A stretch of 36,639 nucleotides of DNA, from positions 1 through 36,639 of IMG/VR virus record IMGVR_UViG_3300021579_000004; one strand, 5' to 3'. The notes under the pieces were generated by a model. That model worked only from the letters and a program-made list of their open reading frames with translations. It did no database searches and had not been told where the DNA came from. This DNA is from a virus. Below are positions 1,167-21,502 of this stretch, in pieces (the first letter of the stretch is position 1; every line of letters begins with the position of its first letter). The translations under genes were made by a program, and so were the position numbers.

Positions 1167-1400
1167 ATGAATGAATCAGCATTTCCTCTTGAAAATCAAA
1201 TTGCAGGCAATCATTACAAGAATCTAAAAATTCAGCCTATCGAGTACATCCATGCCAATGGAATTCCATTTGCAGAGGGCAGCATCATTAAATATGTGAC
1301 GCGCTGGAGAGATAAAGGTGGGATTCAGGATTTAGAGAAGGCAAAGCATTTTATTGAGATGCTGATTATTTTGGAATCACGCAATGATGAAAAATGCTGA
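1167..1400 (+). CDS. DUF3310-family protein
   Basis: GNHYKNLKIQPIEYI...GSIIKYVTRWRDKGGIQDLEKAKHFIEML matches the DUF3310 signature. The ATG at 1167 follows the upstream stop. Confidence 0.75.
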   Translation: MNESAFPLENQIAGNHYKNLKIQPIEYIHANGIPFAEGSIIKYVTRWRDKGGIQDLEKAKHFIEMLIILESRNDEKC

Positions 1401-1837
1401 TTTATGGCGTAGACCCAGGTAAAAATTGCGGGGTTGCAGTTTTTGAAGATTACAAGCTTACCAAGCTATTCACACTGCCCCCACTCAAATTGATGAGCTT
1501 CATTCAAGACACAAAACCAGACATTGTGTTTTATGAAGATTCAAGACTTCAATCTGTTGTCTTTAATCGAGGTGTGAATAGATTGTCTATGCTCAAGATT
1601 GCCAGGAACATCGGAGAGGTAGACGGCTACTGCGGCCTGATTGTTGGCGCTTGCGCCGATGCTGGATCCGTAGCCAATGGGATAAGCCCGAAGGCCAAGG
1701 GCCCCAAGCTGGACGCCGAAACGTTCAAGCGCATCACAAAGTGGGTAGATCTATCGAACCAGCATGAGCGTGATGCAGCTATGGTTGTCTTTCGGATGAT
1801 GAGAAATAGTAGGGTAAACACCAATCCATCGAACTAA
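1394..1837 (+). CDS. RuvC-like Holliday junction resolvase
   Basis: N-terminal LIYGVDPGKNCGVAVF (catalytic Asp motif), then VFYEDSR and a C-terminal QHERDAAMV; this is a RuvC/RNase H-fold pattern. Confidence 0.7.
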   Translation: MLIYGVDPGKNCGVAVFEDYKLTKLFTLPPLKLMSFIQDTKPDIVFYEDSRLQSVVFNRGVNRLSMLKIARNIGEVDGYCGLIVGACADAGSVANGISPKAKGPKLDAETFKRITKWVDLSNQHERDAAMVVFRMMRNSRVNTNPSN

Positions 1838-1886
1838 AAACATGGCCGTTCTGGCCATACAATCACATCACCACATTGGAGGAATA

Positions 1887-2642
1887 ATGGAAATCATTCA
1901 GCACGACATTGATACACATCTTGCGCCAACATCTGGCCACGCTAGTTCGCTATCCCTTCGCCAGGACAGTCCAGCCGCGATCATGCTCCAAGCCTTGCAG
2001 CATGGAACATCCATCGAGCAGATCGAGAAGATCATGGACTTACAGGAGCGGTGGGAGCGCAACGAAGCGGCCAAGCAATACAGTGCAGCGTTTGCCGCAT
2101 TCAAGGCCGAGGCAGTCGTCATCATCAAAGGGCGCAAGGTTACAGACGGCCCACTGAAAGGCCGTTCTTATGCCGAACTTCACGACATTGTGGACGCTGT
2201 GACGCCTGCACTATCTAAGCATGGTCTTAGCGCTTATTGGAAGGTGAGCCGAGATGAGCCCGGATGGATAGAGGTTACTTGCTCGATCAAGCATGTGGGC
2301 GGACACTCGGAGTCGGTCAGCATGGGCGGGCCTCCTGATGCTGGAGGTGCCAAGAACTCGATTCAGGCACGAGCCAGTACGATCACCTACCTGGAGCGCT
2401 ACACACTCAAAGCGATTGCGGGCATGGCCGAGGTTGACGACGATACAGATGGCAACGCACCAGGCAATGACAACCACTTGGCTGATTGGCTGGCGTCGAT
2501 TGATGCAGCACAGACCGAGCAAGAATTGAAAGCCATTCGCCGAGAGGCTGGAGCGTCATTCACCAAGCGTAAGGATGTGCCAGGCTATGCGAAGTTTGCA
2601 GCAGCAGCTACTGCCCGCGAAAAAGCACTGAAAGCGGCATAG
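1887..2642 (+). CDS. erf: ERF-family single-strand annealing recombinase
   Basis: YAELHDIVDAVTPALSKHGL...HVGGHSE...SIQARASTITYLERYTLKAIAGMAEVDDDTDGN is typical of ERF. A GGAGG RBS lies upstream of the ATG at 1887. Confidence 0.8.
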   Translation: MEIIQHDIDTHLAPTSGHASSLSLRQDSPAAIMLQALQHGTSIEQIEKIMDLQERWERNEAAKQYSAAFAAFKAEAVVIIKGRKVTDGPLKGRSYAELHDIVDAVTPALSKHGLSAYWKVSRDEPGWIEVTCSIKHVGGHSESVSMGGPPDAGGAKNSIQARASTITYLERYTLKAIAGMAEVDDDTDGNAPGNDNHLADWLASIDAAQTEQELKAIRREAGASFTKRKDVPGYAKFAAAATAREKALKAA

Positions 2643-2702
2643 GGAAAACACCTATAAATTTTTTGGGCCGGATGAAATTTTGGCCCGAAAAACACCGATA
2701 AT
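2642..2702 (+). promoter_or_regulatory. Conserved intergenic motif plus candidate sigma70-like promoter (copy A)
   Basis: GGGAAAACACCTATAAATTTTTTG lies immediately after the erf stop codon. It is followed by ATGAAA (2672-2677), 19 nt, then GATAAT (2697-2702). The same architecture occurs at 30424..30485. Confidence 0.35.
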
Positions 2703-2725
2703 TGAGTCACCACAAAGGAAGCGAT

Positions 2726-3028
2726 ATGACAGACAAACCGATGTTTTATCCATGGGGCCACGAGAAAGTACTAATCGATGGCGTCGAGCAGCCGACCTAT
2801 TTCAAGATTGAAGGCGGTCGAGGTTATTTTGATCCAGAAAATCCTGAACTTGGATTTGGCATTTATGGCTTTATGCCTCCTGAGGTCGCAAAGATTCTCG
2901 GCAACTCAAACGGATATAAATTCGCTCTTGAACAACTGCTTGATGTTGTCAAGCGGGAAATGCCTGACGATTATTGGACAAAAGACTTGTACGACGCGAT
3001 TGCAGACGCTCACACGGCGCTGATGTAA
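2726..3028 (+). CDS. Hypothetical protein
   Basis: AGGAAG RBS before the ATG at 2726. 100-aa ORF lying between erf and the exonuclease gene. Confidence 0.6.
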   Translation: MTDKPMFYPWGHEKVLIDGVEQPTYFKIEGGRGYFDPENPELGFGIYGFMPPEVAKILGNSNGYKFALEQLLDVVKREMPDDYWTKDLYDAIADAHTALM

Positions 3029-3681
3029 TGAAAGACTATCAATTCAGGCCGTCATCAGTTGGCAAATTGATGACAGAGCCAAAAACAAAAAGTGAAGGAC
3101 CGTTATCTGCTGGCGCTAAAACATATATTCGAGAGCTTGCAGCTCAATATATTTTTGGCGTTGATTTTGAAATTGAATCAAAGTATCTAGACAAAGGGAT
3201 TATCTGCGAACAACAGAGCATTGATTTGCTAAATGATGTTCGCGGATTGTATCTTGTCAAAAATGCAGAGCGAAGAACTAATGAATATCTCAATGGCGAG
3301 TGCGATTTGTTTGATTCATCAAGAAATATCGGACACGATATAAAGACATCATGGTCTTTGCAGACATTTCCAATCCTGGAGCGCGACTGTCACGACAAGT
3401 TATATGAATGGCAGATGAGAGCGTACATGATGCTATGGGATGCAAATGAATGGGAGATTAACTATTGCATGATCAATACACCAGAGGATTTGATTAAGTT
3501 CGAGCCATTGGAATTGCATGTAGTTGACCATATTCCAAAAGAGCATCGAGTAACAACCTGGGTTATTCAGCGTGAAAAAGAAAAAGAGGAAATGATGAAA
3601 GAAAAAATCATTTTTGCACGCGAATACATGCAGCAAGTTTTTAAAGAATTCGATTCAACCCACAAAGCGCTAACCTTTTAA
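3028..3681 (+). CDS. PD-(D/E)XK recombination exonuclease (YqaJ/lambda Exo-like partner of ERF)
   Basis: TAATG-coupled start. GECDLF...IGHDIKTSW gives a D...D-x-K nuclease motif. FRPSSVGKLMT at the N-terminus and the position beside an SSAP fit this call. Confidence 0.7.
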   Translation: MKDYQFRPSSVGKLMTEPKTKSEGPLSAGAKTYIRELAAQYIFGVDFEIESKYLDKGIICEQQSIDLLNDVRGLYLVKNAERRTNEYLNGECDLFDSSRNIGHDIKTSWSLQTFPILERDCHDKLYEWQMRAYMMLWDANEWEINYCMINTPEDLIKFEPLELHVVDHIPKEHRVTTWVIQREKEKEEMMKEKIIFAREYMQQVFKEFDSTHKALTF

Positions 3682-3697
3682 CCAAAGAAAGACATAA

Positions 3698-3862
3698 ATG
3701 GACAATTTTGCAATTAATCTTTTCTTGACTGTTGAACAGATGAATAAGATTCTGACAGGCCTGAGTTTGATGCCTTATCGTGAATCCGTCGATTTGATTC
3801 AAATGCTTAAGGCTGAAGGCGATCAGCAATTAAAAGAGCATCAACAAAAAACAGTTGATTGA
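3698..3862 (+). CDS. Small hypothetical protein (54 aa)
   Basis: ATG-to-TGA ORF (MDNFAINLFLTVEQMNKILTG...) below the ORF-track size cutoff. It fills an otherwise empty gap. Confidence 0.35.
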   Translation: MDNFAINLFLTVEQMNKILTGLSLMPYRESVDLIQMLKAEGDQQLKEHQQKTVD

Positions 3863-3863
3863 T

Positions 3864-3980
3864 ATGAGTGAATCAATATCAGCAATTTGTTTGACTGTCA
3901 TTATTGCTTATTGCACCATGTTCTATATGGATAACGCATTTTCAGCTAATGGCATGGGTTTGATTTTCATCATTCATTAA
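3864..3980 (+). CDS. Small hydrophobic protein (38 aa)
   Basis: MSESISAICLTVIIAYCTMFYM...GLIFIIH. It starts 1 nt after the previous stop and has one predicted TM segment. Confidence 0.3.
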   Translation: MSESISAICLTVIIAYCTMFYMDNAFSANGMGLIFIIH

Positions 3981-4057
3981 ATTTGCCGAAAGTCAACACA
4001 ATAGCCAGGGGTGGCGATTTGTGAAAATGATAAGTAGGCATTCTTCTAGAGGAAAAA

Positions 4058-4474
4058 ATGGCAAATATCTCAGGTGCATTTCGTATTGGCAAAGACGCAG
4101 AATTGCGAACCACACCGTCAGGTGATGGCGTTGTTTCGCTGGCGCTTGCGTTCAACTATGGCCGAAAGGGAGATGATGGCAAGAAGCCTTCTCAATGGAT
4201 TGAGGCTTCATTGTGGGGCAAGCTGGCAGAGGCTCTTGAGCCTTATTTGAAGAAGGGCGGCCAGATCTATGCGGTTATCACCGATCCGCACATCGTTCAA
4301 TTTGAGGGTAAGAATGGCCCAGGCAGCAAGCTCGTTGGCCGTATTACTGATATTGAATTGATTGGTGGCCGTTCGGTTGAATCTGCACCTGAGCCCGCTA
4401 CGAAACCCGTCCCAAAGCCTGCACCTAAGCCAAGCCGTCCGATCAATGATATTGATGATGATGTACCCTTCTGA
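4058..4474 (+). CDS. ssb: Single-stranded DNA-binding protein
   Basis: OB-fold N-terminus (GKDAELRTTPSGDGVVSLALAF...WIEASLWGKLAE), a Pro-rich linker and the acidic tip DDDVPF. Confidence 0.9.
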   Translation: MANISGAFRIGKDAELRTTPSGDGVVSLALAFNYGRKGDDGKKPSQWIEASLWGKLAEALEPYLKKGGQIYAVITDPHIVQFEGKNGPGSKLVGRITDIELIGGRSVESAPEPATKPVPKPAPKPSRPINDIDDDVPF

Positions 4475-16355: not shown

Positions 16356-17065
16356 TAGACGTTCCAAGAGCCTGCCGGGATTGTTATACCGGGCATCACA
16401 TCATATTTGGTGTTAGATGTACTCAGCCAATCTTTAGAACCATCCTTGCCCATAGCGTCCATAGCCCGGCGCTCATAGGTGTTGAAGTCCTCGGCGTATT
16501 CAAAGCCTTTGAGCTTCTTCCAGCGCCAGATAGTTCCAAGAACCAGCAGATTCCACTCAAGGCGCGGGATATCCGTGTCTGCGCCCCATTCCTCACGGCC
16601 AGTAGCTCCAGTGGAGTCAGTCAGCCAGTTGCGGGTGCTGTATTCAAAAACGCATGTCTGCCCTGCGGCTGGCACTGGGTACATGTACAAACTTCCAAGG
16701 CGAATTCTGAAATTAGACCAAGGGCCATTGATAGCAAAAGCCTTGTTTTGCTGCCAACCCTGAGCAGTCTTCGGGCCATACACAGGACGACGCAGCGAGC
16801 GATTCCAGATCGTGTCGTTTGTGATGTAGCCTAGGCCAGGGGCAATAGTTTCGATTGCGCCCTGGTTTTCTTGCGCGACCGTGGTGTAAGTCGCTTCAGA
16901 TTGCAGCCCAGTCCATTCATGGCGGGCCGCAAGCTCTTGCCCTTCTTCGTTGCAGATTGCAAGGATGGTCTGGATTTGATTATCAGTGTTGCCAACAGCC
17001 TGATTAGGCACCGGCAAAGATAACCGACCACATATTGCTCTAACGATAGAAAGGCAAGTCGCCAT
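16355..17065 (-). CDS. Tail tubular protein A-like (adaptor)
   Basis: The N-terminus CLSIVRAICGRLSLPVPNQAVGNTDNQIQTILAICNEEGQELAARHEWTGL parallels the T7 gp11 N-terminus ([20 protein letters not shown]...QSRGWTFN). Confidence 0.5.
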   Translation of the reverse strand: MATCLSIVRAICGRLSLPVPNQAVGNTDNQIQTILAICNEEGQELAARHEWTGLQSEATYTTVAQENQGAIETIAPGLGYITNDTIWNRSLRRPVYGPKTAQGWQQNKAFAINGPWSNFRIRLGSLYMYPVPAAGQTCVFEYSTRNWLTDSTGATGREEWGADTDIPRLEWNLLVLGTIWRWKKLKGFEYAEDFNTYERRAMDAMGKDGSKDWLSTSNTKYDVMPGITIPAGSWNV

Positions 17066-17068
17066 TTA

Positions 17069-17683
17069 TCACCCCATAGGTTCTTCCGTCTTAGGCTTGC
17101 GCCCACGTTTCACCTGTTGAGGCTCGTCGCTATTATCTGATTTTTGCTCGATTTGCGCCAGCCTTTCTTCGAGCGCTGCGAGCTTCTTTTTGAGCGCTTC
17201 ATTCTCCAAGCTAGCGGCATCTTTGCCCTTGCACCACTCTTGCGCCTTCTGTTTCAATTCGCGGCCGCCCATGCCATAAGCCCGCATTGCGTCTTCGGTC
17301 ATAGAGGCCACATCTTCAATCGTCATGAGCTTCAAGGTAATCAAGTTTTCAGCCTGAGCAGGCGAGAGAATTGGCCACTCTTTAACCGAAGTGCCATCCA
17401 GCGGCATATCTTGGCCATCCTGCCAGGCTTTGAATTTCTTGAAGAACGCATCCACCCATTCTTGAGGATAAGCGCCCGGAATAGCGTTCAGGGCCTTGGT
17501 GCGGATCATGTCCAGCCAGTCCACGGCAACGCGCTCAACCTGGTCACGCGAGCCAGGCTGCATAATGAAAGCCATATCGAGGTCTTTCGTGACCCTGCGG
17601 CCCAATTCCTCGGAGCGCAGCTTGTCATGCACAGCAACGCGCTTGAATTCAACAAAAGGAGGTCGTGCTTGGTGTAGTTCCAT
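17069..17683 (-). CDS. Virion-module protein of unknown role (204 aa)
   Basis: Lies between the capsid and tail genes. It has a conserved-looking PPFVEFKRVAVHD N-terminus and a coiled basic C-terminus. Confidence 0.5.
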   Translation of the reverse strand: MELHQARPPFVEFKRVAVHDKLRSEELGRRVTKDLDMAFIMQPGSRDQVERVAVDWLDMIRTKALNAIPGAYPQEWVDAFFKKFKAWQDGQDMPLDGTSVKEWPILSPAQAENLITLKLMTIEDVASMTEDAMRAYGMGGRELKQKAQEWCKGKDAASLENEALKKKLAALEERLAQIEQKSDNSDEPQQVKRGRKPKTEEPMG

Positions 17684-17763
17684 GGTATCGCCTGTTTAGG
17701 TTTTCATTGCAGTGGACACATTGCATGCCCACTGGAATGAAAGGGGCCGAAGCCCCTCCCAGA

Positions 17764-18477
17764 TTAAACAACCTGACCTTGTGCAAAGGGGTTGTTGATA
17801 ATCGCGGCGCCATAGCCGGTGTAAGTACCCGTCAGGGTAATCGAACCGGTGGCAGTTGCCGTTTTGTCGATAGTACCGATGACGCTACCCATGTACACGG
17901 TGCGACCGTCCGGATCAAGAGCGGCCACAACCGTGGCAGCAGGAATACCGGTGCCAGTCAGCGCAGCGCCCAGGAACAGACCATCATAACCTTGAGGGCA
18001 AACCAAACGCGAAGAAGCGTTAACGGTAGTTGCCGTCTTGGTCACGGTGCCAGTGGCAGAGATGCGATTGCGGGTGTTCAGCAATTGCTTGCCAGCAGCC
18101 AGCGTGCCAGCGATGCCAGCAGCGGCCACAGCCACAGCGGTATCAGCGGCGACAGTCGCATTGGTTTTGTAGACCGCCAAACCCTCAGTCTGCAGCCAGC
18201 CATAGCTACCAGACGGGATCGCGTTCATAGCGACACCGAATTGGAAGCCCTGACCAGCGGTAGAAGGCAGCAGGGTACCGGCATAAACTTCGCTCCAGGT
18301 CACCAGCGAGCCCTTGAGGATGGCATCGGCTGATTTGACATAAACGAATTTGCCAGTGCCCCAATAGGGGTCAACGGCGGTAACAGTCATGCCCAGAGGG
18401 TGACGTTGGATGGTGTCCGGGGTGAACCAGTCGTTAAACGGCTGCGTGCCCAGGGTGGGAGAGATAGATGCAAACAT
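17764..18477 (-). CDS. Putative capsid decoration / accessory structural protein
   Basis: AAGGAAA RBS. A Gly/Ala/Thr-rich beta-type protein whose first half loosely resembles DUF2190-type decoration proteins. It sits next to the capsid gene. Confidence 0.35.
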   Translation of the reverse strand: MFASISPTLGTQPFNDWFTPDTIQRHPLGMTVTAVDPYWGTGKFVYVKSADAILKGSLVTWSEVYAGTLLPSTAGQGFQFGVAMNAIPSGSYGWLQTEGLAVYKTNATVAADTAVAVAAAGIAGTLAAGKQLLNTRNRISATGTVTKTATTVNASSRLVCPQGYDGLFLGAALTGTGIPAATVVAALDPDGRTVYMGSVIGTIDKTATATGSITLTGTYTGYGAAIINNPFAQGQVV

Positions 18478-18489
18478 GATATGTTTCCT

Positions 18490-19143
18490 TTAAAGATTGA
18501 ATTTTCTTTTGCGGTTCGGAGTCACAAGCGCCCTTTCAGGTTCCCATCCAACTTTGATGCGTTCATAAATTATTCTTGCACTTATATTGTATTGAGAAGA
18601 CCATTCATGCACTGATTTTGTTTCTCCGAAAGCTGTGACTTTCAACGTTTGGCGTTTGTTCTGTTCTTGCTCTTGTTTTGTGGCCCATCTGCAATTTTCA
18701 GGAGTGTAATTGCCATTAACATCAATTCTGTCTAAGGTTTTGCCTTCAGGCCTCAATCCCATGTCAGACAAAAAATTGTCAAAGCTATTTATCCATCTAT
18801 TACAAATAGAAATGCCACGGCCCCCATATCTGCAAAAATCAGGTGCTTTTGAGTTTAAGCATCGTTGCTTCATGCTATCCCATGATTTAAAGGTTTTTGT
18901 GCCCGTCATGTTATGAGTGTGCGCATGTTGCTCACAGCCGCATGATTTAGAAGTGTTCCTAATCAAATTAGCTGCTTTGACTTTGCTAGTGTTACCACAA
19001 TCACAAACACAGTTCCATAAAACTTCGCCATGCTTGCTTCTGATTGCGTTTTTATCAATCACCATCCATTTGCTGAATCGGAGTCCAGTCAAATCTATAA
19101 CAGTTCGGCTCATAATATGCACCATCAAGTTAATGATTGACAT
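18490..19143 (-). CDS. Free-standing homing-endonuclease-like protein (HNH_3/AP2-type family)
   Basis: LTGLRFSKWMVID...WNCVCDCGNTSKV...SCGC, then WDSMKQRCLN...YGGRGISICNRW...FLSDMGLRPEGKTLDRIDVNGNYTPENCRWATKQEQEQN. The gene is visibly AT-rich compared with its flanking structural genes. Confidence 0.7.
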   Translation of the reverse strand: MSIINLMVHIMSRTVIDLTGLRFSKWMVIDKNAIRSKHGEVLWNCVCDCGNTSKVKAANLIRNTSKSCGCEQHAHTHNMTGTKTFKSWDSMKQRCLNSKAPDFCRYGGRGISICNRWINSFDNFLSDMGLRPEGKTLDRIDVNGNYTPENCRWATKQEQEQNKRQTLKVTAFGETKSVHEWSSQYNISARIIYERIKVGWEPERALVTPNRKRKFNL

Positions 19144-19178
19144 ATTATGAACCGTTTACGCCATAATGTCAAATAGCT

Positions 19179-20060
19179 TTATGCTTTCCCGACCCCTTGC
19201 CTTGCTCGATTTGAGCAAACAAGGTTACCTTGGAACAACACAGGAATCACGATGGCGTCTTGGTTGACGCTACGCAGTTCCGGCATGATTTCCATGTTGG
19301 CGTCTTGGTGAACCACCAGTTCCATGAAGTCGGTGTTCAGGAAGTACATGTGGTTGGCGGGGATGCCCGAGGCGCTGGAGTCGAAGAAGACATCAGCTGT
19401 TTTGTACTTCATCGAGATCATGCCGCCCTTGCCTTCATCGGTCGGGGCGTAGCGCTTCAGGGAAGTCTGTGAAGCCTCGAAGAACGAGAAGTAGTTGGAA
19501 TCCATGACGATGGTGTCGGGCGTGTCGTTGCCACGAGTACAAGCCAGCCACAGAGGCAGCATCATGCCTGCTTCGATGGTGGCAGCGCTCACGGAAACAC
19601 CAGCAGCAGCGGCGCTCAGCACCTGGTTCTGCCAGAAGGCGAACGCGGTGGAGTTGATGCCGCCCACAGTGCCAGTGCCCAGGTCAGAGACCAGCGCTTG
19701 CACGCCGTTGATCTGGTTGGCAGCGGTGCCATCAGAGTACAAATCGCCGGACAGACCGTTAGCCATCGAGCGCTGGGCATTTTTCAGCTTCGTCTTCACA
19801 AAGTTGATGATGCGATTGGAACCGCTGTTGGTGCGAATTTCCAAGCCAGAAGCGGCAACATTGACAGCCACTTGACGCCAAGCGAACTCAGCAGCCGAGA
19901 TGACGTCCACAGCAGACACGTTCAGCGTGTCAAAGCCGCTGTAACGTTGGTACGTGCTGTTTGCAGCGTAGTCCAGAGGCGTGACGATGGACAAGCCGCC
20001 GTCTTCCAAGCGAATGCGGCCTTTATCGGCGATGCGGCGATAGAGTGCATTGTGATTTGA
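19179..20060 (-). CDS. Major capsid protein, exon 2 (293 aa)
   Basis: It begins SNHNALYRRIADKGRIRLEDGGLSIVTPLDYAANSTYQRYSGFDTLN and ends ...NQDAIVIPVLFQGNLVCSNRARQG. The position after the scaffold and the ~325-aa spliced size fit an HK97-fold epsilon15/BPP-1-type coat protein. Confidence 0.85.
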   Translation of the reverse strand, partial: SNHNALYRRIADKGRIRLEDGGLSIVTPLDYAANSTYQRYSGFDTLNVSAVDVISAAEFAWRQVAVNVAASGLEIRTNSGSNRIINFVKTKLKNAQRSMANGLSGDLYSDGTAANQINGVQALVSDLGTGTVGGINSTAFAFWQNQVLSAAAAGVSVSAATIEAGMMLPLWLACTRGNDTPDTIVMDSNYFSFFEASQTSLKRYAPTDEGKGGMISMKYKTADVFFDSSASGIPANHMYFLNTDFMELVVHQDANMEIMPELRSVNQDAIVIPVLFQGNLVCSNRARQGVGKA

Positions 20061-20355
20061 CTTTCTGTTACCGCACCGGCTCTTTATCCGATGCTTCACT
20101 AGCTTTCGCATAATGCTCAGACTATATCATCAGCAATTTTTATTGCTGTACCGCGCTCGTGGTGCTTTACTGCCCGTTCTGGGCTCCATGCACTAGTCGT
20201 TGAACCTTCAGCCTATTCCTAGGCCGCTTGGCTGCTGATTGCCCAATCTTTCATCTTTTCTAACCTTCGCATTTGCCATTACTAGCTCTGCTGTGGTGAT
20301 GGAAGCTCTAAGGGGTTTCCAGCAATTCACGGTATTTTACAACGTCTCAAACTCA
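20061..20355 (-). ncRNA. Group I self-splicing intron (295 nt, no internal ORF) in the capsid gene
   Basis: P AAUUGCUGGAAA (20316-20327), Q AAUCAGCAGC (20231-20240), R GUUCAACGACUAGUG (20191-20205), S AUGAUAUAGUCUGAG (20116-20130). The guide sequence UUGA-GACGUU pairs with both exon ends. The 5' exon ends in U and the intron ends in G. Confidence 0.85.
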
Positions 20356-20451
20356 AACGTTATCAGCAACCTCTTTTTTGTGGTTGCGATAGGTCGTGCT
20401 CACCAGTTCGGTGAACGTATTAAACAGGGTGCTTTGACCGGGAGAGGCCAT
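20356..20451 (-). CDS. Major capsid protein, exon 1 (32 aa)
   Basis: GGAGAAAATC-ATG lies 14 nt after the scaffold stop. The exon encodes MASPGQSTLFNTFTELVSTTYRNHKKEVADNV, and an in-frame TGA follows the 5' splice site immediately. Confidence 0.8.
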
Positions 20452-20464
20452 GATTTTCTCCTAA

Positions 20465-21502
20465 TTAAATGAGACCCAGCGATTTGGCTGTTTCTCGGAT
20501 TGTGTCGTCTATACTGCCGACTGGTTTCGTGGCAGGCAATGCGCCCCGTCGAGCAACATTGACCGCACTGGCCTGTCGTGCAGCTTGTGCCTTTTGAGTA
20601 GCCACCGCCTTACGTTCTGCCTCGGCCTTGGCTTGCTGTTCTGCAAGCACCTGAGCACGGACAGCCGGATTGGCATAAATGGCCTTTTCATAGGCATCAC
20701 GGAGGTCGGAGGCAAGACCAGCCTGTAAAAGGCCTGCCATGTCTTCACGAACTGCCGCAAAATGCGCGTTTGCAGGGTCATTGGAAAACCGCTCAATTTC
20801 GCTGTTAAGCGTCGCGTTTTCCCGCTCCTGATGCGCTTGGCTCTGTTGTGCTACCCAGCCTTCAAGCTGATTGAGCTTTTGTTGCAGGGCATACGAATTT
20901 TGGTCAAAAGGTTGCGCCTGAGTCTGCGCGACCTGTTGAATGTTGATTCCATAATCAGATGCCAACTTGTGCAGCATCTGGATTTTCTGATCTTGGCTGC
21001 CCGTCCGAAGCATCGAGTCAGCGTTGAAAAGCGCTTGAATGGCAACATCAGGCGTGACACCAGCCGCCTGGATGGTTCGCATGTAAGGGGCAATGGCTCG
21101 ATTGATCGAATCGCCAAATTGTGCCTTTTCGCGATATTGCTCAAGCCCTCTGTGCATTTCATCACTGCGCCGGATGAATTCTTGCATCACCACCGGGTCT
21201 TTAGCGATGGCCTGAGCTGCCTCTTTACGCAAGCCCAGGCGCTGCAATTCGGTAGGTATGGTGGCCTGTACTTCAGTCGGCTCATCCTGCTTTACTTCAG
21301 GCTCTGGATTATCCTCGGCCTTCGGAGTTTCAGGTGTCTTCGGCTCTTCGGGCTTGTTCTTCGGAGTGAATCGGCCATTATCGTCACGATTTTCTGTGCC
21401 GCGAGATTCAATCTCCTCTAGGGTTTTACGGAGAGTATCCTCCATAGAACCAGATTCGTTGTTAATGTCTTCCTCTGTAGAGAGGACTTCATTCTCATCC
21501 AT
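20465..21502 (-). CDS. Scaffolding protein
   Basis: It lies immediately upstream of the capsid gene. It has an acidic N-terminus (MDENEVLSTEEDINNE) and the motif RDDNGRFTPKNK, and it is long, helical and Gln/Ala-rich. Confidence 0.65.
   Translation of the reverse strand: MDENEVLSTEEDINNESGSMEDTLRKTLEEIESRGTENRDDNGRFTPKNKPEEPKTPETPKAEDNPEPEVKQDEPTEVQATIPTELQRLGLRKEAAQAIAKDPVVMQEFIRRSDEMHRGLEQYREKAQFGDSINRAIAPYMRTIQAAGVTPDVAIQALFNADSMLRTGSQDQKIQMLHKLASDYGINIQQVAQTQAQPFDQNSYALQQKLNQLEGWVAQQSQAHQERENATLNSEIERFSNDPANAHFAAVREDMAGLLQAGLASDLRDAYEKAIYANPAVRAQVLAEQQAKAEAERKAVATQKAQAARQASAVNVARRGALPATKPVGSIDDTIRETAKSLGLI

Follow-up and report, generated by a model that had tools for sequence, protein, structure and literature searches.

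A probable self-splicing group I intron without an open reading frame in the major capsid protein gene of an Mx8-like phage

The IMG/VR virus record IMGVR_UViG_3300021579_000004 is a DNA of 36,639 nucleotides (nt), which was analysed over its whole length and is called the window below. Its major capsid protein gene, on the minus strand, is interrupted by 295 nt (20355..20061), and this insert is very probably a group I intron of the IA-like phage type that is functional and splices itself, and it contains no open reading frame (ORF). The assignment is based on the sequence anatomy of the insert, its score against a covariance model, the colinearity of homologous proteins, covariation and the distribution of the insert among relatives. 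We infer that the intron is functional because its anatomy is intact and the capsid gene is essential. The gene is laid out as follows.

20462..20458, minus strand: ribosome-binding site AGGAG, 6 nt 5' of the capsid ATG, read from the sequence
20356..20451, minus strand: capsid exon 1, 32 codons (MASPGQ...EVADNV), ATG at 20451, from the sequence and homolog colinearity
20361..20356, minus strand: AACGUU, the final 6 nt of exon 1 and the 5' strand of P1
20061..20355, minus strand: group I intron, 295 nt, no ORF, from the RF00028 match; boundaries from protein colinearity and the U.G and terminal-G rules
19179..20060, minus strand: capsid exon 2, 293 codons plus stop (SNHNALY...GVGKA)

The product of exon 1 is MASPGQSTLFNTFTELVSTTYRNHKKEVADNV, and the last base of this exon is 20356. 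Directly 3' of it stands an in-frame UGA (20355..20353), which makes up intron nt 1-3, and the capsid frame restarts at 20060 with SNHNALYRRIADKG. Excision of 20355..20061 joins the exons between codons V32 and S33 and gives a capsid protein of 325 amino acids (aa). The predicted spliced junction reads ...GAUAACGUU on the exon 1 side and UCAAAUCAC... on the exon 2 side, with exon ends GCUGAUAACGUU and UCAAAUCACAAUGC, and the predicted tryptic peptide that spans it is EVADNVSNHNALYR. A first-pass annotation, made from the sequence alone, had proposed an intron at this place; the 295-nt interval, the UGA after exon 1, the restart of the frame and the ribosome-binding site all lie at the positions that it gave, and the covariance-model and protein-alignment checks that it proposed came out in its favor, as described next.

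The Rfam family RF00028 (Intron_gpI) matches the insert with 72.0 bits (E = 1.5e-16; the gathering score is 50), and 253/253 model positions are matched. This is the sole Rfam match across the 36.6-kb window, and a permissive scan of 17000-20700 adds none. The match spans 20392..20097 (minus strand), and its ends differ from the splice sites: the P1 of the model falls on an exon 1 hairpin, and the model ends with P9, which leaves the last 36 nt of the intron uncovered. The exon 1 hairpin (20392..20365, minus strand, GCAACC...GGUUGC) has similar complementarity in exon 1 of the related loci L030, L032 and L205, not in all relatives; it may be fortuitous, or it may form an alternative structure in competition with P1.

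The spliced 325-aa protein aligns over residues 1-324, in one tblastn piece and with 60.7% identity, to the product of the uninterrupted gene MW202489.1, annotated as 'major virion structural protein'. The capsid genes of Bradyrhizobium phage ppBjS10J-1, Stenotrophomonas phage BUCT555 and Myxococcus phage Mx8 also match, with colinear proteins, and that of Myxococcus phage Mx9 is a further match. At the junction the window has ADNV/SNHNAL and the homologs ADNVSKNNAL; the alignment is gap-free, and D30, V32, N36 and A37 are invariant. In nucleotides the junction could shift by one base, since a U starts both the intron and exon 2. The boundary given here is favored because only with that choice does a U precede the 5' splice site and the intron have G as its 3' base. 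Translational bypass, an intein and a group II intron were also considered for the insert and rejected: it opens with a stop codon, has exact boundaries after a U and after a G, and fits the model of group I introns. A second intron at the C-terminus of the capsid protein, where an odd tail (...NLVCSNRARQGVGKA) is followed by the endonuclease gene described below, was rejected as well. The C-terminal motif GNxxxSNxxxQG is common to the homologs, the alignment reaches residue 324/325, and the permissive Rfam scan mentioned above is otherwise empty.

The capsid ORF that is listed mechanically runs 20111..19179 and has 310 aa. It starts with MRKLVKHRIKSRCGNRK, followed by SNHNALYRRIADKG..., and the 17 residues MRKLVKHRIKSRCGNRK are a translation of the 3' part of the intron (P9/P9.1). 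This ORF is the choice of the gene callers, and it could be taken to mean that the insert is a splicing-dead relic, so that a truncated capsid protein is made from the ATG at 20111 or the phage is defective, with a pseudogene at this place. We regard this as highly improbable. Every core helix is intact, with a score that exceeds the Rfam threshold, and P1, P10 and the terminal G are perfect. Exon 1 retains its ribosome-binding site and an intact, conserved frame of 32 codons, with 87-90% identity to exon 1 of relatives. Every homolog has the N-terminal part specified by exon 1; the first-pass annotation had named homologs that start near the internal ATG as evidence against an intron, and none starts there or near residue 33. 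Nothing in the homologs corresponds to the 17 residues read from the intron, and by inspection no purine run resembling a ribosome-binding site is visible just 5' of the ATG at 20111. Finally, the identical ORF is present on six contigs, five of them of 20-50 kb, which fits a circulating phage.

These six public contigs (L322) all carry the mis-started 310-aa ORF, and the public gene calls contain only this ORF, so that automated annotation does miss the intron, as had been foreseen. Because the identical ORF is found on six contigs, the same phage has been assembled repeatedly and mis-annotated each time; the sister contigs are likely to be mis-annotated alike. The capsid protein in public calls therefore has 17 spurious N-terminal residues and lacks 32 real ones, an error that affects phylogenies, structure prediction and protein clustering.

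Intron structure and proposed splicing pathway

The elements of the intron are listed in their approximate 5' to 3' order.

20341..20352, minus strand: internal guide sequence, from the P1 and P10 pairings
20352..20347, minus strand: P10 guide GUUUGA, pairs with exon 2 nt 1-6 (UCAAAU), 6 bp
20346..20341, minus strand: P1 guide GACGUU, pairs with the exon 1 end AACGUU, U.G at the splice site
20149..20334, minus strand: P3, UACCGUG (20334..20328) with CGCGGUA (20155..20149), from covariation and the unconstrained fold
20233..20324, minus strand: P4 (UGCUGG/UCAGCA) and P5 (CCC/GGG), from alignment and fold
20311..20245, minus strand: P5 extension, 67 nt, lacking in L030/L031 and some other family members
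20204..20232, minus strand: P6 (GCC/GGU) and P6a (GGCCUA-GGAA-UAGGCU, GNRA-type loop), both-side changes in 6/6 P6a pairs
20194..20199, minus strand: 5' strand of P7, CGACUA (R element), forms a pseudoknot with P3
20162..20193, minus strand: P7.1 (GUGC/GCAC) enclosing P7.1a (GCCC-AGAAC-GGGC), both-side changes in 4/8 pairs, unconstrained fold
20131..20148, minus strand: P8 hairpin CAGCAAU-AAAA-AUUGCUG, both-side changes in 7/7 pairs
20118..20124, minus strand: 3' strand of P7, UAGUCUG (S element), one bulged U, pairs with 20194..20199
20115..20097, minus strand: P9 with GAAA loop, both-side changes in 6/7 pairs
20094..20073, minus strand: P9.1 with loop AUAAAGAG, then GGUAACAGAAAG to the 3' splice site, both-side changes in 5/7 pairs
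20061, minus strand: terminal intron G

The P, Q, R and S elements are in the places assigned to them by the first-pass annotation. P4, as drawn here, is in register with the UUGCUG/CAGCAG pairing that it gave, and P7 has the same GACUA/UAGUC core; P1 with its U.G pair, P10, the terminal G and the hairpins with GGAA and AAAA loops also agree with its description, and P10 can be extended to 6 bp. P3 encloses P4-P6, the 5' strand of P7 and P7.1; both sides change in 4/7 of its pairs, and 95% of its cells are paired. There is no P2. The unconstrained minimum-energy fold of the 295 nt contains all of the nested helices (P3-P6a, P7.1, P8, P9 and P9.1) at -85.9 kcal/mol (z = -3.0).

The structure (P3, P4, P5, P6, P6a, P7, P7.1, P7.1a, P8, P9 and P9.1; 60 pairs in 11 helices) was derived from the window and mapped onto an alignment of 20 members of the intron family. 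Both sides change in 35/60 pairs, against 24.1 in shuffles, and the covariation score is 0.465, against 0.126 for shuffled alignments and about 0.05 when partners are slid; none of the 500 shuffles attains the observed values. P6a, P8, P9 and P9.1 vary at almost all of their pairs yet stay paired. P4 and P7 are nearly invariant (the P7 pairs do not change at all over the 20 members), and because of this they are uninformative for covariation, though consistent with the structure. Near-invariance is expected of the catalytic centre, and P7 is the guanosine-binding helix. The GAAA loop of P9 and a GAUAACA-like tail are conserved throughout the family.

Standard pairs fill 96.1% of the cells (60 pairs, 20 members), against 76.5% in shuffles and 30-41% with partners slid by 1-3 columns, and here two features of the procedure count against the interpretation as a functional intron: the ORFs in the P8 loops were excised by script before the 20 members were aligned, and deriving the structure from the window inflates the fraction of paired cells relative to the slid controls, not the counts of both-side changes. 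To these should be added that the activity in splicing, what the UGA does and which way the ORF changed, as discussed below, are all deduced from sequence.

The ends of the intron can be compared among the six introns at the capsid site. All of them start with UGA and end with G, and P1 (AACGUU/GACGUU with U.G) is the same in each. The P10 guide co-varies with exon 2, being UCAAAU/GUUUGA in the window, AGU/ACU in L205 and ACA/UGU in L213. P10 and the 3' splice site are supported because these bases, which lie just 5' of the P1 guide, change together with exon 2. The capsid-site introns differ in the P5 extension, which is short in L030 and long in the window and L032. In L030/L031, L210, L216, L217 and L223 it is replaced by a hairpin of about 12 nt. 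Since the extension is variable even among introns at one site, this peripheral domain would be gained or lost as a module.

The intron has an extra covarying domain (P7.1 with P7.1a nested in it) that lies between P7 and the 3' strand of P3, as in subgroup IA introns; the phage-type introns of subgroup IA2 have additional helices P7.1 and P7.2 at this position. The best intron matches from cultured phages have 70-76% identity over at most 65% of the length (Bacillus phage polymerase introns, and introns of Staphylococcus, Lactococcus and Pseudomonas phages). According to the literature, the polymerase introns of SPO1-like and Bastille-like phages belong to subgroup IA2. With respect to that subgroup, the extra P7/P3 domain is seen, polymerase introns of Bacillus phages are the closest annotated relatives, and P2 is absent; IA-like is the term used here.

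The pathway proposed here is the standard one of group I introns, applied to the pairings described above. In the window the capsid pre-mRNA would fold into the P3-P9.1 core, and the guide GACGUU would pair with AACGUU of exon 1 to form P1, with the U.G pair at the cleavage site. An external guanosine would attack after U20356. The guide GUUUGA would then align exon 2 by P10 pairing with UCAAAU, the terminal G20061 would enter the guanosine site in P7, and ligation of the exons would produce the mRNA for the 325-aa coat protein. By analogy with the T4 introns, the UGA at intron nt 1-3 would cause ribosomes on unspliced RNA to be released ahead of the ribozyme core.

Capsid-site relatives and the ORF-less state

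A scan of IMG/VR gave 80 capsid loci with 65-94% aa identity to the window protein. About 75 of them, including the closest at 93-94%, have 325 uninterrupted codons. Four loci (L030-L033) match from residue 32 only; their exon 1 lies about 710-770 nt upstream, and they score 56-65 bits with RF00028. A sequence pattern from the R/P7.1 region revealed two more capsid-site introns, L205 and L213 (59 and 66 bits). A homologous intron at the identical capsid site is thus present in five other lineages (L030/31, L032/33, L205, L213), and all score above the Rfam threshold. The distribution is patchy: the closest capsid relatives of the window are without the intron, and the carriers are 81-83% identical to it. 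Only two capsid relatives were found in named genomes, each with 69% identity, too distant to point to a host, and both are also intron-less; one is on a 557-kb scaffold of Candidimonas nitroreducens (L333) and the other is in a Steroidobacteraceae metagenome-assembled genome (L334). The presence of capsid homologs inside bacterial genome records is a sign that Proteobacteria harbor temperate relatives of this phage group.

The R/P7.1 pattern gave 25 matches and was specific enough to serve as a probe; L215, L218 and L221 were chance matches and were dropped. A second pattern, AACGTTTGAN{0,1}..., is a candidate alternative probe for capsid-site introns in metagenomes. The core motifs GAATTGCTGGAAACCCC and GGGCAATCAGCAGCCAAG were rejected as lineage probes, being too general; each is present in more than 120 viral contigs among the matches listed. 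The R/P7.1 pattern also gives about 16 members of the intron family in other genes, some ORF-less (L207/L208, L209, L212, L214, L216, L219, L220/L222, L223, L224, L225 and L227) and some with an ORF (L206, L210 and L217). These introns have in common P4-P6, P7.1, the GAAA loop of P9, a P9.1 loop GAUAAAGAGCC and the GAUAACA tail.

All of the capsid-site introns except that of the window have an ORF of about 155 aa or more in the P8 loop, with a conserved leader, and the final codons of this ORF also form J8/7 and the 3' strand of P8. The two P8-loop ORFs tested, those of L030 and L032, match the GIY-YIG domain PF01541 (3e-9 and 3.5e-8). The window intron has no endonuclease gene: its P8 loop is AAAA, and the only internal ORFs are of 40 aa on the coding strand and 27 aa on the opposite strand. 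Because it has no such gene, the intron would be unable to home by itself. The capsid site is therefore found in three states, empty in most relatives, with a GIY-YIG intron in five lineages and with an ORF-less intron in the window.

Most likely, the window intron derives from a mobile intron that lost the GIY-YIG gene from its P8 loop. This is the more parsimonious view because five lineages carry a homologous ORF at the same position. The identity of the intron core is 80-81% to L226/L155, 79% to L213 and 77% to L106, and the most similar introns are ORF-containing ones at the capsid site. A neighbor-joining (NJ) tree groups the window intron with L226/L155 and L106, in a tree that rests on about 220-270 aligned columns at about 80% identity and carries no support values. 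This last point tells against a loss and leaves some room, if not much, for an intron that was ORF-less from the beginning.

According to that alternative, the ORF-less form is ancestral and the GIY-YIG gene entered the P8 loop later, in the lineage of the other capsid-site introns. Family members in other genes with a short P8 and no ORF (L207, L209, L212, L214, L216, L219, L220, L223-L225 and L227) are in keeping with it, and so is the P8 loop of the window, which bears no trace of the conserved ORF leader CCAGAGAGGGGAAUCCCGAAUGGC. It is difficult to reconcile with the five other capsid-site lineages, all of which, including the more distant L205 and L213, have a homologous ORF with the same leader at the same position. 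Furthermore, the window core is nested among ORF-containing introns in the NJ tree, which would make the ORF-less state secondary, and derivatives with a deleted ORF are documented for the Streptococcus thermophilus lysin intron, as far as it is summarized in PMC8541194. We consider an ancestral ORF-less form rather unlikely and continue with loss of the GIY-YIG gene.

The neighboring HNH-like gene and mobility

The minus strand of the window carries terminase, portal, scaffold-like, capsid and tail genes, and a tRNA scan found no tRNAs in the window. Between the capsid gene, whose exons have 55% GC, and the next virion gene there are two further features.

18490..19113, minus strand: free-standing HNH-like endonuclease-family ORF, 207 aa, 40% GC
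19144..19172, minus strand: promoter-like site TTGACA-17-CATAAT, 11/12, sigma-70-like, directly 3' of the capsid stop and 5' of the HNH-like ORF, consensus match only

The HNH-like ORF matches PHROG 374 and PHROG families labelled HNH endonuclease (2e-64). It has no significant sequence match in Pfam, NCBIfam or PDB, and the HNH label comes from the PHROG families only. The motif region as seen by eye, LDRIDVNGNYTPENCRW, has R in place of the first His of the classical HNH motif, and at least 8000 relatives are in the protein database. The product is a putative nuclease, with a label that holds at the level of the family. Public gene calls also give 207 aa, and the ORF is absent from the synteny of MW202489.

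The intron and the HNH-like gene are 917 bp apart, on either side of exon 2. An ORF-less intron and a low-GC endonuclease-family gene with a promoter-like site that flank one exon would suggest collaborative homing, for which there are published precedents (PMC10448857; PMC6083498). In its strict form, the HNH-like enzyme would cut intron-less capsid alleles at the insertion site, the intron would split that site, and both would spread as a unit, as with F-CphI and the psbA intron of S-PM2. We think this very unlikely here. The closest homologs of the HNH-like protein in a search of 5.8 billion proteins (75% and 71% identity) are encoded at the same intergenic spot beside uninterrupted 325-aa capsid genes that are 91-92% identical to that of the window, and an intron scan found none at the capsid junction of these loci. 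The L328 junction, GCTGATAACGTT/TCTAACCAC (also GCUGAUAACGUU/UCUAACCAC), is intron-less and has only two synonymous differences from the spliced junction of the window. More distant HNH-like homologs (34-41% identity) are present at the same spot in at least seven further intron-less relatives, and the nuclease activity is itself putative, given the missing Pfam and PDB sequence matches. A comparison of the HNH lineage with ORF-less introns in IMG/VR returned three distant matches only and was uninformative.

The HNH-like cassette is best seen as a second, independent selfish element, since its closest relatives adjoin capsid genes without an intron. The gap between the capsid and the next virion gene looks like a recurrent insertion hotspot for diverse HNH-like genes that are 34-75% identical to each other; it is occupied in the window (18490..19172, minus strand) and in L019, L027, L035, L043, L044, L053, L084, L326, L328, L329/L330 and L331. 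Another HNH-like homolog, 41% identical to that of the window, is in L030 (1399..2034, on the strand opposite to the capsid gene), upstream of the scaffold-like gene. It is oriented against the structural operon, in a phage that carries the GIY-YIG intron.

A looser relationship, which complements the reading of the insert as a functional intron, is mobilisation in trans. The intron could move by co-conversion when the HNH cassette homes downstream of the capsid gene (compare T4 mobE), or by means of the GIY-YIG enzyme of a co-infecting relative. We consider this possible, although the odds are against it. A free-standing endonuclease-family gene is found within about 1 kb of the intron, homing in trans has a precedent (PMC2790892), environmental sister phages have a GIY-YIG intron at the identical site, and the patchy distribution of the intron implies transfer or repeated loss. 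The phage also encodes a Holliday-junction resolvase, an Erf-like annealing protein, an exonuclease and a single-stranded DNA-binding protein (early region, window 1394..4474, plus strand, parts of it with 35-42% GC); recombination modules of this type would be used by the double-strand-break repair that occurs in homing. Against mobilisation in trans, the nucleotide identity of the capsid gene to the L326/L328 backbones shows no visible disturbance near the junction, without a sign of a recent co-conversion tract, and the HNH lineage occurs without the intron. A more specific proposal, that the locus is a snapshot of endonuclease turnover in which the stripped intron persists or spreads by hitch-hiking on homing of the HNH-like cassette, seems to us less probable still. 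If it were true, this phage group would be a tractable environmental test of collaborative homing versus turnover of homing endonuclease genes (HEGs) in a structural gene.

Significance and comparison with known systems

The capsid protein is expected to be among the phage proteins made in the largest amounts, and with an intron in its gene, splicing late in infection would have to be very efficient. The series found at one site (empty, GIY-YIG intron, ORF-less intron) illustrates the life cycle of a selfish intron and offers a test of how ORF-less introns persist. In other respects the window intron is an ordinary member of the large population of phage group I introns, which number thousands in some jumbo phages (PMC12880540), and it leaves our understanding of group I introns unchanged.

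With the group I introns of phages such as T4 (td, nrdB and nrdD) and the SPO1-like and Bastille-like Bacillus phages (DNA polymerase), the window intron shares the P3-P9 core, the P, Q, R and S elements, the U.G pair in P1, P10, the terminal G, an extra helix between P7 and the 3' strand of P3 and an initial stop codon. The Bacillus phage polymerase introns have 70-73% nucleotide identity to it over 57-65% of its length. It differs from these introns in its host gene, which is a virion structural gene of an uncultured Mx8-like phage of about 37-40 kb, in the absence of P2, and in P7.1, which is a single compound hairpin (P7.1/P7.1a).

The first-pass annotation had called introns in phage structural genes uncommon. 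They are indeed rare, but the novelty was overrated, since introns in capsid genes have been published for the lactococcal phage Tuc2009 and the mycobacteriophage LittleE (Pope et al. 2013, PMC3706429). For LittleE, RT-PCR and N-terminal sequencing demonstrated that the intron is spliced (PMC3706429). That intron is 819 bp long, has an endonuclease ORF and is tentatively group I, whereas the window intron is ORF-less and securely group I. The capsid families and insertion sites of Tuc2009 and LittleE are unrelated to those of the window, and our literature search found no paper that describes the window intron or an intron of its capsid family.

Natural variants of one intron with and without an internal ORF are known from the lysin gene of S. 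thermophilus phages, where deletion derivatives were described (Foley et al. 2000, as cited in PMC8541194). As far as that account goes, the series resembles the one at the capsid site, and the host gene, the intron lineage and the endonuclease family differ. In T4, the nearby free-standing HNH gene mobE mobilises the defunct I-TevIII intron in trans (PMC2790892), a model for the spread of an intron that has no working endonuclease. That system concerns the nrdB locus of a myovirus and has been demonstrated; for the window, mobilisation of this kind is a possibility only.

The closest parallels to the arrangement in the window are ORF-less introns beside free-standing endonuclease genes, as with psbA and F-CphI in S-PM2, the DNA polymerase genes of T3/T7-like phages, and the terminase gene of ICP1 with a T5orf172 gene (Barth et al. 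2023, PMC10448857). Such pairs have been discussed as collaborative homing or as HEG turnover (PMC10448857). The window likewise has an ORF-less group I intron in an essential gene and a free-standing endonuclease-family gene next to an exon, and relatives with an intron-encoded endonuclease exist, as the turnover model predicts. It departs from the collaborative-homing systems in that its free-standing gene has relatives beside intron-less, nearly identical junctions. Therefore, the juxtaposition of two independent selfish elements would fit the locus better, and a functional partnership of the intron with the HNH-like gene is unlikely.

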